Shown here: piece after piece, positions 46,272-50,421 of the stretch
How the letters are laid out: every line of letters begins with the position of its first letter
Numbering within the stretch: the first letter of the stretch is position 1
Assembly (NCBI RefSeq): GCF_030013205.1
Contig: NZ_CP122648.1
DNA from: Escherichia coli
GTDB taxonomy: Bacteria; Pseudomonadota; Gammaproteobacteria; Enterobacterales; Enterobacteriaceae
Length of the DNA: 64,000 nucleotides
Direction: 5' to 3' (one strand)
The notes under the pieces: model-generated
The model's input: only the letters and a program-made list of their open reading frames with translations
The model's database searches: none
What the model was told of the DNA's origin: nothing
Program-made: the position numbers and the translations under genes

Positions 46272-46832
46272 ATGAAGGCAATTATATTTTTTGTTTCAAT
46301 ATTGATGTCTGCATTTTCTTTTGCAGGGCAAAATGTTAAATGCGAACTTCAATACTTTGGAGATAGCGATAAATTTAAGGTAACTCAGTTTTCTTTTATG
46401 GGGATTCCATCTGATTCATACCTTTATACCTGTGCCGACTGTGGAGGCATCCAGATAAACGTGTTCCCATCTATTCAGACTGTTGCTTCCTACTCATTTG
46501 AAAACAACATTGATTTCGAAAGGAAAATCAATGCTGAATACAACAGAAAAGACATAGCTAAACTTGAGATGGAAAACGTTACTCAAGGCGGGAGAATAAA
46601 ATATTCAATCACCGATACTGGTTTGGCAGAGTTTTACCCAGAGGGCAAAAAGATAAGCTACCTCTACTTTTTAGCCAAGCAACAAAATGGTAAAGAACAA
46701 GTAGGTTATTCAGGATTTGTTACCTCTAACGGGGATAAGTCATGCTCAATTATTGCGACATATCCAGGAAAAGAAATTTCTTTTCTGGGAAGTAAATCTT
46801 TAAGCTACTTTATGAATCATATATCAATGTAG
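46272..46832 (+). CDS. secreted/periplasmic protein, unknown function (accessory gene)
   Basis: 186 aa with signal peptide MKAIIFFVSILMSAFSFA-GQ. Visibly AT-rich compared with the upstream virion genes. It starts 2 nt after the preceding stop. Confidence 0.65.
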   Translation: MKAIIFFVSILMSAFSFAGQNVKCELQYFGDSDKFKVTQFSFMGIPSDSYLYTCADCGGIQINVFPSIQTVASYSFENNIDFERKINAEYNRKDIAKLEMENVTQGGRIKYSITDTGLAEFYPEGKKISYLYFLAKQQNGKEQVGYSGFVTSNGDKSCSIIATYPGKEISFLGSKSLSYFMNHISM

Positions 46833-46845
46833 CGTGACATGTCAC

Positions 46846-46870
46846 AGGCCGCTTTCGCGGCCTTGTTTTT
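46846..46870. terminator. terminator after the 186-aa gene
   Basis: AGGCCGC-TTTC-GCGGCCT followed by TGTTTTT. Confidence 0.8.
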
Positions 46871-47030
46871 AACGAATGCCACCGCCACCCGGGCGGGAAT
46901 CCGCAGAACGCCCACCGCAGCGGGAGCCGTCAGCGGCAGTATCGCTGTCGTGCTGACAACGACCGGCAAAGGCCTGAGTTGAAGCTACCAGAGACAACAA
47001 AACGAACAGTGCAGCAAATGCTTTTTTCAT
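46869..47030 (-). CDS. small secreted Gly/Arg-rich peptide (53 aa)
   Basis: Start placed at ATG 47030. Signal peptide MKKAFAALFVLLSLVASTQAFA, then GRCQHDSDTAADGSRCGGRSADSRPGGGGIR (2 Cys). The Shine-Dalgarno is weak. Confidence 0.5.
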   Translation of the reverse strand: MKKAFAALFVLLSLVASTQAFAGRCQHDSDTAADGSRCGGRSADSRPGGGGIR

Positions 47031-47043
47031 TGTGAAGTTTCCA

Positions 47044-47071
47044 TCTATAAGCCACCTCAATGTGGCGTCAA
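47044..47071 (-). promoter_or_regulatory. candidate sigma70 promoter for the small-peptide gene
   Basis: Minus strand reads TTGACG, 16 nt, TATAGA. The predicted leader is very short. Confidence 0.4.
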
Positions 47072-47100
47072 TGAGTGTAGCACTGGCTTTTGTTTCGTCC

Positions 47101-47124
47101 ACAAAAAAAGCCCGCAGCGCGGGC
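47101..47124 (-). terminator. intrinsic terminator of the 69-aa/288-aa operon
   Basis: Minus strand reads GCCCGC-GCT-GCGGGC followed by TTTTTTTGT. The stem overlaps the stop codon. Confidence 0.8.
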
Positions 47125-47990
47125 TATTCTTTTTTGCTATTTCTTTGATATATATTTCTTCCATTTTTGGTAACACGAATAACGTGCCCCCTGGATTCTA
47201 CTTTGTTATTTGTTGCTTTATATACTTCAAAATCAAACCATGATATATAACTTATTTCGTCAATAGACACCATGATCTCAAGTCCTGGCACTTTCTTTCT
47301 GCTAATTCCTCTTATTGCTGCAGTCCGCTTGACCTGTATTTCTCCTGGATAAGCATTAGTGAATGTGACAGATAAGTTGTCTTTGTTCCTGTATCCTGAC
47401 ATTAAAGGAACAAAAGATATGTGCTGATGCGGACCCTGATTTTCCGTTGGTTCACCAGAACCATTTATTATTCCAACATACACTTTGTTTGATGATAAAG
47501 TAATCAGCATTGGTCGTTTAGGATCCGATTCAATAGCATCAAGCAATAGTAAGTCTAAAGAACCTTGCGAGTAAGTTTTTCGCAGTACTCTGGCCTTCAT
47601 TGCCTCTGTTTTTTGCTCGTAAATATCACGTTTATAAAAACAACCAAGAAGAAAATCTTTCACCCACACAACAGACACATAACACAAAGAGAAGCAAATG
47701 GATGTGGCTGAGAGAAGAAGCAGCCACATGTAAATTCTATCTGTTTCTGGTTTTGATGTTACATTAAAAGTTTCCACCATATCGTGAACTAGGTGAAAAT
47801 CAGGCCATTTATATTTTATAGCGGCTGCAATTATTACTGATGCAACAAGGCAATATGTACCTAGTGCCGCTACTTTCATATAAAGAAGCTGGCCTTCGTG
47901 TCGGTATAAACGGAAATAATGATACTGGTTAGCGGTTATCATAATATAACCGCTAACCAGGATTGGGATAATTAGAAGAGCTAGCAACAC
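47124..47990 (-). CDS. membrane protein with ~170-aa C-terminal soluble domain, unknown function
   Basis: 288 aa with a GTG start preceded by AAGGAAG. Three or four N-terminal TM segments (LLALLIIPILVSGYIMI, VAALGTYCLVASVIIAAAI, IYMWLLLLSATSICFSLCYVSVVWV), then a soluble domain (...PMLITLSSNKVYVGIINGSGEP...SFVPLMSGYRNKD...). AT-rich. Confidence 0.7.
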   Translation of the reverse strand: MLLALLIIPILVSGYIMITANQYHYFRLYRHEGQLLYMKVAALGTYCLVASVIIAAAIKYKWPDFHLVHDMVETFNVTSKPETDRIYMWLLLLSATSICFSLCYVSVVWVKDFLLGCFYKRDIYEQKTEAMKARVLRKTYSQGSLDLLLLDAIESDPKRPMLITLSSNKVYVGIINGSGEPTENQGPHQHISFVPLMSGYRNKDNLSVTFTNAYPGEIQVKRTAAIRGISRKKVPGLEIMVSIDEISYISWFDFEVYKATNNKVESRGHVIRVTKNGRNIYQRNSKKE

Positions 47991-48199
47991 TACTTCCTTA
48001 CAGTGGCAAGATCCTGTTTAACAATTGCAGCAGCGAGACGACGCATCTCCTTAACCTCAGGAAGCTCAGAAATTTGCTGTGATGAGATATATACTCCACC
48101 ACGCTTGTTAACCTGCGCTGACGCCGGAACTTCTGCATTTTTTGCCTGAGGGCTGGGTGCATTATCCCTCGTTTTTGTACGAGCGAACCAAAATCCCAT
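47990..48199 (-). CDS. 69-aa protein, unknown function (first gene of the two-gene operon)
   Basis: ATG with a GGAGGA Shine-Dalgarno. Its stop TAG overlaps the GTG of the 288-aa gene (TAGTG). Confidence 0.6.
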   Translation of the reverse strand: MGFWFARTKTRDNAPSPQAKNAEVPASAQVNKRGGVYISSQQISELPEVKEMRRLAAAIVKQDLATVRK

Positions 48200-48225
48200 A
48201 TATCCTCCTCATGTAAACACATGGT

Positions 48226-48240
48226 TTACCTTTAAGGTAA
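48226..48240. promoter_or_regulatory. phage palindrome site I (TTACC-TTTAA-GGTAA)
   Basis: Perfect half-sites, 27 nt upstream of the 48199 start. On the gene strand the -10-like TAATAT abuts the site (TAATATTACC). Confidence 0.65.
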
Positions 48241-48270
48241 TATTACGCGAATCTACATCACATCGCCAAT

Positions 48271-48298
48271 GATTATTTTAAAGGCACATCCCTGTGCC
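48271..48298 (-). terminator. terminator after the BRO-N gene
   Basis: Minus strand reads GGCACA-GGGA-TGTGCC followed by TTTAAAATAAT. Confidence 0.55.
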
Positions 48299-48306
48299 GC
48301 CGCTCG

Positions 48307-48999
48307 TCAGAAGAACCCTGCCTTGTCGTTGATGTACTCCGCGTGCGTCTGGATATCACGCAGGCATTTGCTCACACCGACGATGTAGCAGAACATGGTG
48401 GTCAACTCCGCCGCCGCGCCCGATACGTCGTGCCCGTCTTCCTGTAACTGGTTCAGCAGATTCATCAGCAGTGAGTTCTCCGTCAGGCCGAGAACACCAG
48501 ACGGAGAATGAATCAGGCTGCGGTAGCCGGGCTTCAGCGGGGCACTGTAGGTTTTGTTCTCTATCTTCATTGCCTGCATCACTGCTGATGCTGTGGCGTT
48601 GGCTACCTGGTCGGCAACCATCTTTATGCGTTCTTCCTGCGGGAGCGAGTTTTTAATGTAACTTCCGGTGCGGCGGATCTGAGGAAGAACCTCACCTGTA
48701 ACCCATTCAAGAAATCTGAATGCTCTCGTTCCCTCAGTCATTGCCTCTTTGCAACGCAGAATAAGGATGTAGAGACCTGATTCTGAAACGATGGATAGTT
48801 CTTGTATTCCACCAGGGGTCTGTATTGAATACAGCCCCTTTTTGTTCCAGCCTTTTTTATCAAGTTTTCTCGCTTGTGTAACATCAATATTCAAAGCATT
48901 GCACACATCTTTGGTGACAAACCAAGGTTCTCCGTCAATCATGAACATACGGATCTGGCAGGATGACTCAAAGGAAAAGATGGAAGGTTTGGTATTCAT
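48307..48999 (-). CDS. BRO-N domain protein (antirepressor-like) with uncharacterised C-terminal domain
   Basis: Start placed at ATG 48999 (MNTKPSIFSFESSCQIRMFMIDGEPWFVTKDVCNALNI...), 230 aa. The N-terminus is a typical Bro-N/KilA-N-type DNA-binding domain. The C-terminal 72 aa are paralogous to the 85-aa ORF at 50145-50402. Confidence 0.75.
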   Translation of the reverse strand: MNTKPSIFSFESSCQIRMFMIDGEPWFVTKDVCNALNIDVTQARKLDKKGWNKKGLYSIQTPGGIQELSIVSESGLYILILRCKEAMTEGTRAFRFLEWVTGEVLPQIRRTGSYIKNSLPQEERIKMVADQVANATASAVMQAMKIENKTYSAPLKPGYRSLIHSPSGVLGLTENSLLMNLLNQLQEDGHDVSGAAAELTTMFCYIVGVSKCLRDIQTHAEYINDKAGFF

Positions 49000-49149
49000 G
49001 GCGATCACCTTTGTAGTTAGGTTAATCACCACCGCTGAGACCAATCAGATGGTGGTGAACTGTGCAGAGTTGGTCTTACCGGCTACAAAGGAACCCGGCG
49101 CACCTTTCGGTGCCCCCACACAGCCCACCATAGAATAGGTGCGCTTTAC

Positions 49150-49394: not shown

Positions 49395-50123
49395 ATGGAA
49401 GTTTTCTGGGTAGTTGTTGGTGTGGTTGCGGTGATTATTTACGTTATCAACCAGAACAAGACTAAGATCTCTGATCGTACGGTCGTTAATCATAACAAAA
49501 CGATAAAGACTGAAGATGGGGAGATAACGATTAATCGTACACAGGTGATAGAACACACCTCCACTCAGTTTCAAAAAACGGGAGATAATGCGCCTAATAT
49601 TTCCGTACCTCCTGCTTATGATAGCGCGGTAATCCAGACATATTATAAACAGCAGGAGTTAGCAAAAGAGAGGCAACTGATTCAGCCAAAGCCGTTTACA
49701 GCTGAGCTTCCACCCGGAGTGTCAACGCGTCCGGCATATCATGGAAGATTCCCTGGTGATGACATATCGTCTCAGTCATCTAAAAAAGCACCTCAGGCAG
49801 TATCAGAGCCAGCAAGAATACCTTCTGTATCGCCGCCAAAAGAAGAATCAGCTAACAGAGTTTCAAGTGGTAGCAAGCAGTGCTTGCGATGCAGAATAAA
49901 CCTTCCATATGAAAAATTCAGGAAATCGTCAAAAAATCCAGATGGATTGACTAAGTGGTGTGCAAGGTGTCTCGATGGCCCAAAGAATACACGCCATATG
50001 AAGTGGTGCCCAATTTGTAATGTCCGCAGAAAACGAACTAGCTTTTACCCTAATAATCAAAATGCGGACGGCTTAATGGCATGGTGCAAAACGTGCTGGG
50101 ACGAGCACAAAGCGAAACGATAG
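49395..50123 (+). CDS. membrane-anchored protein with two C-terminal zinc-ribbon-like repeats
   Basis: 242 aa. N-terminal TM segment MEVFWVVVGVVAVIIYVI, a low-complexity linker, then two units CxxC-x(n)-DGLxxWCxxC (CLRC...DGLTKWCARC and CPIC...DGLMAWCKTC). Confidence 0.65.
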   Translation: MEVFWVVVGVVAVIIYVINQNKTKISDRTVVNHNKTIKTEDGEITINRTQVIEHTSTQFQKTGDNAPNISVPPAYDSAVIQTYYKQQELAKERQLIQPKPFTAELPPGVSTRPAYHGRFPGDDISSQSSKKAPQAVSEPARIPSVSPPKEESANRVSSGSKQCLRCRINLPYEKFRKSSKNPDGLTKWCARCLDGPKNTRHMKWCPICNVRRKRTSFYPNNQNADGLMAWCKTCWDEHKAKR

Positions 50124-50146
50124 GCCGCTAGAGCGGCCTTTTCTTT
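50122..50146. terminator. bidirectional terminator between convergent genes
   Basis: AGGCCGC-TAGA-GCGGCCT followed by TTTTCTTTAT. Confidence 0.75.
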
Positions 50147-50402
50147 ATGTGGTTTGTTTTCGTAATTGTTCGGCACAATAGTCGAGATGTGTTTGCAGAT
50201 CCTGCATAGACATCTGTGAGCTGGTGACGTAGTTAATCAGTGCAGTCAGTTCGGCAAGTGGGCCATCGACATTAAATCCATCCTTATCGAGATCCCGGAG
50301 TAATTTCATCAAGTGCGATCCCTCCACCAGTGATCTGACGCCTCCCGGCGTGTGAATCCTTTCGGTAAATCCGTCTTCCAGTGGATAGTGATACTGCTGC
50401 AT
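50145..50402 (-). CDS. 85-aa protein paralogous to the BRO-N protein C-terminal domain; candidate SOS-controlled antirepressor
   Basis: Start placed at ATG 50402 with a GGAGAA Shine-Dalgarno. 31 of 72 residues are identical to the BRO protein C-terminus in an ungapped hand alignment. A LexA box lies about 20 nt upstream. Confidence 0.65.
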   Translation of the reverse strand: MQQYHYPLEDGFTERIHTPGGVRSLVEGSHLMKLLRDLDKDGFNVDGPLAELTALINYVTSSQMSMQDLQTHLDYCAEQLRKQTT

Positions 50403-50421
50403 CTTATCTTCTCCATGCAAT

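Follow-up and report, generated by a model that had tools for sequence, protein, structure and literature searches.

A 64,000-nucleotide stretch of Escherichia coli DNA (contig NZ_CP122648.1 of assembly GCF_030013205.1; hereafter the window) carries on its minus strand two open reading frames (ORFs) arranged head to tail, one encoding a small protein of 69 amino acids (aa; 48199-47990) and the other a membrane protein of 288 aa (47990-47124). The pair is strictly linked and conserved as a unit, and we tentatively read it as an anti-phage module of the abortive-infection (Abi) type in which a membrane effector is controlled by its small partner, a reading to which the sequences lead us to give somewhat less than an even chance. 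We favor it because the pair is so strictly linked, because the second product seems to be held at a low level, because the large protein combines a conserved predicted barrel, which has an invariant polar motif, with a variable periplasmic loop, and because the two genes move about as exchangeable cargo at sites that phages and other mobile elements use for anti-phage genes.

We consider both genes real because their products match families in PHROGs and because they are conserved across many loci. The large protein matches PHROG 3630 (E 2.1e-114; residues 4-288 align to positions 3-274 of the 274-position profile) and the small protein matches PHROG 5739 (E 7.3e-52; residues 1-69 align to all 69 profile positions). 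A profile search covering 1.84 billion cluster representatives (clusters at 50% identity) recovered 2,337 proteins of the large-protein family at E ≤ 1e-3; the number falls to 901 at E ≤ 1e-10 and to 123 at E ≤ 1e-30. Almost all of the proteins are 240-340 aa long and match the profile end to end. The initial annotation of this DNA had left open whether the pair is conserved as a unit elsewhere, and it is: after the large gene had been located in each locus by the family hidden Markov model and the DNA upstream inspected, a small ORF on the same strand was found in all 44 of the 44 loci having upstream sequence, ending anywhere from 1 nt inside the large gene to 24 nt before its start. Among further loci, seven of eight match the small-protein profile (E 1.6e-15 to 1.3e-6). 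The pair occurs in Enterobacterales, Pseudomonas, Pseudoalteromonas, Brachymonas, Bowmanella and Acidobacteria. The principal features of the window copy are these:

47135-48224 (minus strand): swappable cassette, the DNA replaced in related prophages, delimited by comparison with three of them
47990-48199 (minus strand): small partner gene, 69 aa, PHROG 5739
47124-47990 (minus strand): large gene, 288 aa if read from a GTG at 47990 but probably 287 aa, read from a TTG at 47987, PHROG 3630
47661-47990 (minus strand): membrane anchor of the large protein, residues 1-110, with three predicted transmembrane (TM) helices (about residues 2-20, 38-58 and 88-110; hydropathy and AlphaFold2 (AF2) model)
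47145-47558 (minus strand): predicted cytoplasmic Sm/LSm/Hfq-like beta-barrel domain of the large protein, residues ~145-282 (AF2 model)
47922-47963 (minus strand): mRNA stem-loop within the coding region, codons ~10-23 (LVSGY-IM-ITANQ), from folding and covariation

The large protein had been proposed to begin with three or four TM helices; hydropathy supports three and gives no fourth. RefSeq/PGAP starts the gene at M38 (251 aa; locus L001, 20442-21197, NZ_CP122673) and in doing so removes the conserved first helix. Residues 1-37 (M.ALLLIPILVSGY..., G33-Q-L-L-Y37) are among the most conserved of the family, M.ALLLIPILVSGY being nearly invariant, and since the N-terminal residues are held so tightly we take the long form to be correct and the 251-aa annotation to be too short. 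Several E. coli genomes annotate one gene of the pair only. The predicted topology has the N-terminus facing outward and a cytoplasmic C-terminal domain, because positive charges fall in loop 1 and after the third helix. The window protein has 2 Lys plus Arg residues in loop 1, 4 in loop 2 (versus 5 Asp plus Glu) and 8 after TM3, and the corresponding mean charges among 79 diverse family members are +1.5 for loop 1, -1.1 for loop 2 and +1.9 for the linker that follows TM3. Loop 1 is conserved and in these 79 proteins measures 17-18 aa, and loop 2 varies (23-63 aa). The family as a whole has its most conserved parts in the cytoplasm and a variable periplasmic loop. No natural fusions of the small and large proteins were found, the longer family members differing only in the TM2-TM3 loop.

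The C-terminal domain could not be assigned in the initial annotation, and at the level of sequence this holds: neither the window protein nor any of the 79 diverse members has a Pfam or NCBIfam family, and profile and sequence searches against PDB sequences returned no relative. On the AF2 model, by contrast, the domain is an Sm-like barrel. The model (a monomer built on 22 sequences; pLDDT 73.5, pTM 0.57) is helical to residue 154 and then enters a beta domain with strands at residues 161-165, 169-178, 190-201, 208-213, 239-242 and 246-251; together these display the Sm fold of an N-terminal helix followed by a strongly bent five-stranded sheet. Residues K169, Y171, S198, G199, R201 and Y214 are invariant in the family, and G173, P181, E183, P195, Y200 and F252 are at least 90% conserved. 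The Sm-like region is acidic across the family (mean net charge -5.4), and this counts against a general RNA-binding role for the barrel. Compared with Sm, LSm and Hfq barrels and the related WYL ligand-sensing domains, the modeled domain is distinguished by this acidity, by its fusion to a membrane anchor and by extra residues inserted between strands 4 and 5 (214-238, low pLDDT). Sm1/Sm2 sequence motifs were not found, and no Pfam LSM, Hfq or WYL match was obtained for the window protein or the 79 members. In MscS channels each subunit likewise has three TM helices followed by a cytoplasmic Sm-like beta domain, which forms a ring beneath the pore; we liken the large protein to this plan as a working analogy only, and Pfam MS_channel matches neither the window protein nor the 79 members. 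In two Arsenophonus endosymbionts (loci L010 and L012) the large gene appears degraded, the C-terminal part alone matching the profile and a start codon not being found, a state to be expected of prophage cargo that decays in the genome of an endosymbiont.

The small protein of the window is basic (12 Lys plus Arg versus 6 Asp plus Glu) and has no hydrophobic segment by hydropathy, in agreement with the initial proposal that it is soluble. Its AF2 model (mean pLDDT 68.6, rising to 84-89 over residues 31-60) has a disordered N-terminus, a beta-hairpin at residues 28-38 and helices at 40-68. The conserved core reads V.V..RG.V.IP..EI..LPEVkeM...A..IV, and a degenerate form of it is recognizable in the P2-type, Brachymonas, Bowmanella, Acidobacteria and Pseudoalteromonas copies. 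The profile search gave 170 clusters of homologues, all 58-109 aa long and lacking a Pfam domain; 16 small proteins compared with Pfam and by profile search with PDB sequences gave nothing even at E ≤ 10. The G.V.IP..EI portion of the core resembles AbrB/MazE-like and ribbon-helix-helix (RHH) proteins, and a DNA-binding role of either kind is unsupported by any Pfam or PDB-profile match. Several homologues, from Salmonella, Lonsdalea, Brenneria and Cronobacter, bear the erroneous name 'multidrug ABC transporter ATPase'. Small proteins are basic across the family (mean net charge +5.0), and the opposite charges of the small protein and the Sm-like region fit direct binding of the one to the other.

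The arrangement of the two genes suggests that the large protein is made sparingly. The two ribosome-binding sites are:

48204-48210 (minus strand): strong Shine-Dalgarno sequence GAGGAGG of the small gene, 4 nt 5' of its ATG
47993-47999 (minus strand): Shine-Dalgarno sequence AAGGAAG of the large gene, within the end of the small gene

Both ORFs, the TAGTG junction and the AAGGAAG sequence are present on the minus strand just as the initial annotation had them. It had further inferred a translational overlap, and indeed the last base of the small gene's TAG (47992-47990) is also the first of a GTG (47990-47988). A TTG two bases past the small-gene stop is nonetheless conserved in relatives without that GTG (tagtaTTG, tagcaTTG, tagcTTG), and AAGGAAG is spaced 5 nt from the TTG at 47987 versus 2 nt from the GTG at 47990. 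Because of this conservation and the better spacing we regard the TTG as the likelier start; the large protein is then probably 287 aa long and its gene closely apposed to the small gene, not overlapping it. Among 47 loci with an intact large gene, many of which are near-identical copies, the start is TTG in 35, ATG in 8 and GTG in 4.

The codons of the first TM helix also encode an RNA hairpin. The segment 47963-47922 folds into a 15-bp stem with a 6-nt loop (-24.7 kcal/mol; z = -7.9 versus shuffles), and the stem is present in Enterobacterales relatives down to ~45% protein identity and absent from distant homologues. In an alignment of 20 distinct sequences, 85.7% of the cells of the stem are paired, versus 18-59% when the partner column is slid, and double-sided changes occur in 19 cells versus 8.9 in shuffles, none of 500 shuffles reaching 19. 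Compensatory swaps from UA to CG are seen at two pairs, and synonymous sites are frozen, Ala being GCT in 18 of 20 sequences and Val GTT in 19 of 20. The frequency of G-U pairs indicates that the structure forms in the sense RNA. We rate this evidence as moderate, since kinship among the sequences inflates such statistics. No Rfam family matches the hairpin, and it is unlikely to be a terminator, a U-rich tail being found in the window type only; a possible role is to restrict either the translation or the stability of the message of the large gene. With its weak TTG start, its dependence on the upstream frame and its structured 5' coding region, the second product would be kept low and tied to the first. 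TTG or GTG starts, a covarying hairpin, a small gene that survives alone (see below) and a large gene that in no locus checked is without a small ORF are together suggestive of a controlled and potentially harmful effector.

Over the window stretch, identity to a prophage of E. coli ETEC4071 is 100%. This prophage encodes a core protein resembling T7 gp14, a cement protein of the Bbp16 type and a tailspike, and its close relative vB_EcoP_ZX5 is classified as Uetakevirus. Within this podovirus prophage, which is Uetakevirus-like, the window copy of the pair falls in the region from the internal-virion genes to the tailspike gene and not in the P2-like position between gpA and the portal gene. 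The gene order is internal-virion genes (plus strand), an AT-rich gene of 186 aa (plus), a membrane-protein gene of 77 aa (minus), the pair (minus), a BRO-N antirepressor gene (minus), two small genes and the tailspike gene (plus). As initially noted, the pair is richer in AT than the virion genes: the GC content is 37.0% in the large gene and 47.6% in the small one, versus 54.9% in the adjoining 850-aa virion gene and 50.2% in the window.

That this position is a variable slot before the tailspike gene, as had also been proposed, is borne out by the different cargoes of three related prophages. Prophage CP8-3 is homologous to the window from 48500 to 48225, through the promoter and palindrome described below, and again from 47134 to 46833, and holds unrelated genes of 55 and 147 aa in between. 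In ZX5 homology extends from 48500 to 48270 and from 47133 to 46970, and the cargo is a 113-aa gene and a DUF2335 membrane-protein gene. The third, Ecol_542, is a chimera: homology stops at 47986, precisely where the small gene gives way to the large one. The 69-aa gene is kept (~93% DNA identity), and in place of the large gene stand a 71-aa ORF and a DUF2335 membrane-protein gene, the latter resembling that of ZX5. Because the small gene is retained here without the large one, it is tolerated alone. The chimeric cassette (locus L052, 4128-5075) is found also in E. coli strain 4/4. On the far side of the slot, homology with ZX5, CP8-3 and Ecol_542 picks up again at 47131-47134. Three elements lie at the edges of the cassette:

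48240-48269 (minus strand): putative weak sigma-70 promoter, TTGGCG (48269-48264), 18 nt, TAATAT (48245-48240), recognized by eye, 8 of 12 positions
48226-48240 (no strand assigned): 15-bp palindrome TTACCTT-A-AAGGTAA, perfect 7+7 with arms 100% complementary, overlapping the -10 hexamer by one base
47101-47125 (no strand assigned): bidirectional intrinsic terminator, stem AGCCCGC/GCGGGCT (47125-47109) followed by TTTTTT on the minus strand, common to all slot cargo variants

Since they are common to prophages with different cargo, we assign promoter, palindrome and terminator to the backbone of the slot rather than to the cassette. The pair had initially been described as a palindrome-controlled operon. 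The palindrome and TAATAT are there, and CP8-3 has the identical promoter and palindrome with unrelated cargo, which rules out the palindrome as the operator of this operon. The putative promoter is plausible but weak: TTGGCG and TAATAT can be picked out by eye, and a sigma-70 consensus scan requiring at least 9 of 12 positions calls none upstream of the small gene. Transcription may instead read through from the antirepressor gene, which lies upstream on the same strand. Just past the antirepressor stop codon is a short hairpin, GGCACA-GGGA-TGTGCC followed by TTTAAAAT (48275-48298, minus strand), which the terminator scan did not call and which may be a weak terminator separating the antirepressor gene from the cassette. 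The strong terminator that the initial annotation placed at the end of the operon was confirmed.

Outside the window, the phages that host the pair are all temperate and carry it always in an accessory position. In Cronobacter phiES15 it adjoins the integrase gene and attP, in Pseudoalteromonas C5a it lies near the integrase/repressor region, and in Pseudomonas phages U5 and U6 it is found at the ends of the records. In Klebsiella ST15-OXA48phi14.1, Salmonella SEN4/5 and a 186-like prophage it occupies the gpA-portal interval; in the last of these it is the only sizeable cargo of the locus, beside two short ORFs (119 and 69 aa) with no Pfam match, and this variant has no near match in E. coli genomes. 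The gpA-portal interval is the P2 hotspot, the site of old and tin, and several defense systems from it have been validated (Rousset et al. 2022, PMC9122126). Two unnamed systems of that study, #43 and #57 of its Table S5B, proved to be members of the large-protein family (hmmsearch E 1.6e-41 and 1.8e-84). The table gives 93 loci and one protein for #43 and 75 loci with a large and a small protein for #57, and describes both merely as '2 TM' proteins without Pfam (PMC9122126). The second protein of #57 matches the small-partner profile (E 8e-12), so that #57 shares the two-gene layout of the window pair, and its large protein is 37% identical to the window protein over 275 aa (BLASTP). Systems #43 and #57 differ from the window copy in belonging to the cos-proximal hotspot of P2-like myoviruses and in their divergent sequence. 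Neither is in the tables of cloned or tested systems (S2A, S2B), and the family motifs occur in Tables S1 and S5 only (PMC9122126). In the related P4 hotspot, six of eight randomly picked unknown loci protected against phage in a 2026 study (PMC13586616).

Other copies reside on plasmids and islands. An integrase-bounded element of a 4-Mb chromosome (GCA_005233495.2) holds the pair together with an OLD-like ATPase, GajB of Gabija (E 2e-208), a relaxase and bSEFIR, the last directly downstream of the pair (E 1.1e-48); in a Klebsiella phage bSEFIR is again downstream of the pair (E 6.9e-103). On Salmonella IncC plasmids the pair is next to a RecD-like helicase gene, and one locus adjoins a ParE toxin gene. 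The two bSEFIR (SEFIR/TIR) genes, in independent loci, are at L003 4856-6495 and L057 7883-9022, and in the Klebsiella phage the pair and bSEFIR are separated by a 69-aa ORF that is coupled to the TIR gene. The association could be chance co-residence or a functional link.

Among the closest known systems are two-gene Abi systems such as lambda RexAB, Hydrolase+TM and RT-nitrilase+TM, for which the TM protein has been proposed as the killing effector (PMC9122126). Like the window pair, these are pairs borne by prophages or satellites in a hotspot and include a TM protein; they have no homology to it by PADLOC, and their non-membrane partner differs from the small protein here, which is tiny, its folded core spanning ~40 aa, and lacks any enzymatic or NTPase domain. 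Two-gene prophage cassettes with a membrane protein are a known kind of system; the architecture and the protein family are new. The family itself is already visible in PHROGs and in a 2022 supplementary table, but without name, fold or function; we found no paper connecting Sm-like domains, membranes and defense, and none mentioning PHROG 3630.

If the pair acts as an abortive-infection module, the large protein would sit in the inner membrane through its three helices with the Sm-like barrel facing the cytoplasm. Because Sm folds usually form rings, we infer that the barrels would assemble into one, bundling 18-21 helices into a latent pore or a membrane-perturbing assembly. The small basic protein would be made first and in excess over the large protein, would dock on the acidic barrel, and would either hold the assembly closed or serve as a sensor. 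Infection by a second phage might then remove or alter the partner, or deliver a ligand to the conserved pocket of K-Y, S-G-Y-R and Y residues, whereupon the membrane would be permeabilized and the infection aborted. In its most specific version this scheme would make the family a class of immune effector of its own, in which an Sm-like ring anchored in the membrane would function as a gated inner-membrane channel, shut by the small basic protein on its acidic cytoplasmic face and opened by a phage-derived cue sensed at K-Y/S-G-Y-R/Y, with expression tuned by the hairpin. We think it improbable that all of this will prove correct. If it did, this would be the first known Sm-fold membrane-channel scaffold outside MscS and a widespread defense system missed by current catalogues.

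Several observations weigh against the abortive-infection reading. Both structural models are of monomers and of moderate confidence (pLDDT 73.5 and 68.6), and ring, pore and small-protein binding go beyond them. None of the 5,027 models of PADLOC-DB 2.0 matches the two window proteins or their phage homologues at E ≤ 1, so that the PADLOC comparison suggested in the initial annotation came out negative; the sole match of the 79 diverse members at E ≤ 0.01 is to AbiEii, at a chance-level E of 0.0094. The family is absent from the DefensePredictor supplements, and the literature searched contains no experiment on it. The alternative cargoes of the window slot (a small gene with a DUF2335 membrane protein; the 55-aa and 147-aa genes) are no known defense genes, so that this slot alone gives no independent hotspot evidence, and the P2 hotspot too carries cargo other than defense, including partition systems and a toxin. 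The Bowmanella chromosomal copy has T2SS-type and HD-domain neighbors, and the copy in a Thermoanaerobaculia metagenome-assembled genome (MAG) has a deaminase and the RNase P protein, none of them defense genes. The original suggestion of an exclusion or defense candidate has gained much support from context, namely the P2 hotspot, bSEFIR and Gabija neighbors and a sieA-like position, and not from any match to a known defense model; the pair is a strong candidate for a new anti-phage system rather than a demonstrated one.

The sieA-like position raises an alternative, that the large protein passively blocks genome delivery through the ejection-protein conduit without killing the cell, as in superinfection exclusion by SieA of phage P22. 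The P22 order is gene 20, gene 16 (ejection, plus strand), sieA (minus strand, own promoter), mnt, arc, ant and gene 9 (tailspike), and its sieA slot mirrors that of the window pair: both are encoded on the opposite strand, with ejection or internal-virion genes to one side and the ant/tailspike region to the other. SieA is a protein of the inner membrane, 162-164 aa long and with three TM helices, that blocks DNA delivery without any other phage protein (PMC10883804), and it resembles the large protein in its three predicted helices, in its membrane and in coming from a temperate podovirus, where it is expressed from the prophage. The variable periplasmic loop (23-63 aa) is likewise what one would expect of a surface that meets diversifying phage proteins. 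Yet we found no homology to P22 SieA (BLASTP E 3.1; hhalign probability 0.65%), and a tblastn search with the window large protein returned no P22-like phage. SieA acts alone and has neither a cytoplasmic domain nor a required partner, whereas here an Sm-like domain is predicted, the cytoplasmic partner is strictly conserved (44 of 44 loci) and the most conserved parts are cytoplasmic. The spread of the family over myovirus hotspots, plasmids, islands and non-phage chromosomes of distant phyla also misfits a block tuned to one injection apparatus, and overall we judge simple exclusion unlikely.

A toxin-antitoxin-like maintenance module, in which a membrane toxin and a small antitoxin would stabilize a prophage, plasmid or island with no primary anti-phage role, would account for several of the same features: the small gene comes first and is tolerated alone, the large gene is tightly coupled to it with a weak start, the pair is carried by conjugative IncC plasmids and integrative elements, one locus is beside the ParE toxin gene, and the P2 hotspot has plasmid-type partition systems as well. 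It accords less well with the small protein, which has no recognizable antitoxin or DNA-binding domain. A type II system would be expected to have an antitoxin with a DNA-binding fold (RHH, AbrB or helix-turn-helix) and a cassette-specific operator, and we find neither; the promoter palindrome is not specific to the cassette and there is thus no sign of type II autoregulation. The large protein, with its elaborate conserved cytoplasmic domain, is also not a minimal membrane toxin, and we hold this explanation to be quite unlikely. Even further from what we expect, and very improbable in our estimation, is a membrane effector of the Thoeris or phage AC1 (2TM+1TM+TIR) kind whose barrel binds a small molecule made by a TIR or SEFIR enzyme. 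The bSEFIR neighbors could be a source of such a signal. No TIR or other signal-generating gene is near the pair in the window or in most other loci, among them phiES15, SEN4/5, the 186-like prophage, C5a and the IncC plasmids. bSEFIR is described as a single-gene system. It matches a PADLOC model by itself, and the pair matches none of the PADLOC models, which include the Rousset systems. Membership in Rst_2TM_1TM_TIR, the AC1 system, is ruled out, there being no TIR gene in the window and no PADLOC model that its TM proteins match, and the TIR neighbor in L003 and L057 is bSEFIR. The probability that remains belongs to functions outside the anti-phage reading and these three rivals.

Should the pair prove protective, it would add a widespread two-gene system that is unannotated in Pfam, NCBIfam, PADLOC-DB 2.0 and PHROGs, from a family present in several temperate-phage families, on plasmids and in integrative islands. 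The Sm-like barrel on a three-helix anchor would be a new membrane-effector architecture, and two recurrent unnamed entries of the P2 hotspot, accounting for 168 E. coli loci, would acquire a function. The system is small (~1.1 kb), with mutational targets that are few and obvious and with a covarying hairpin, so that both mechanism and regulation are directly testable.

Finally, we note several neighbors of the pair in the window. The 186-aa ORF (46272-46832, plus strand), directly after the 850-aa internal-virion gene, has a signal-peptide-like N-terminus, a GC content of 35.5%, a match to PHROG 11983 and none to Pfam, and looks like another AT-rich moron. The 77-aa ORF (46869-47102, minus strand; 53 aa in RefSeq), whose leader is hydrophobic and whose tail is rich in Gly and Arg, matches PHROG 3117 and PHROG 14503 ('membrane associated protein') and is present in most of the slot cargo variants. 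A 91-aa ORF before the tailspike gene (50145-50420, minus strand) stands alone and is paralogous to the C-terminal domain of the BRO-N antirepressor (48307-49044, minus strand), both matching PHROG 450 and PHROG 15539. The 242-aa ORF (49395-50123, plus strand; PHROG 6762) combines an N-terminal hydrophobic helix with two C-terminal CxxC zinc-ribbon repeats and has weaker matches to endonuclease VII-like, Lar-like and Stc1-like profiles.

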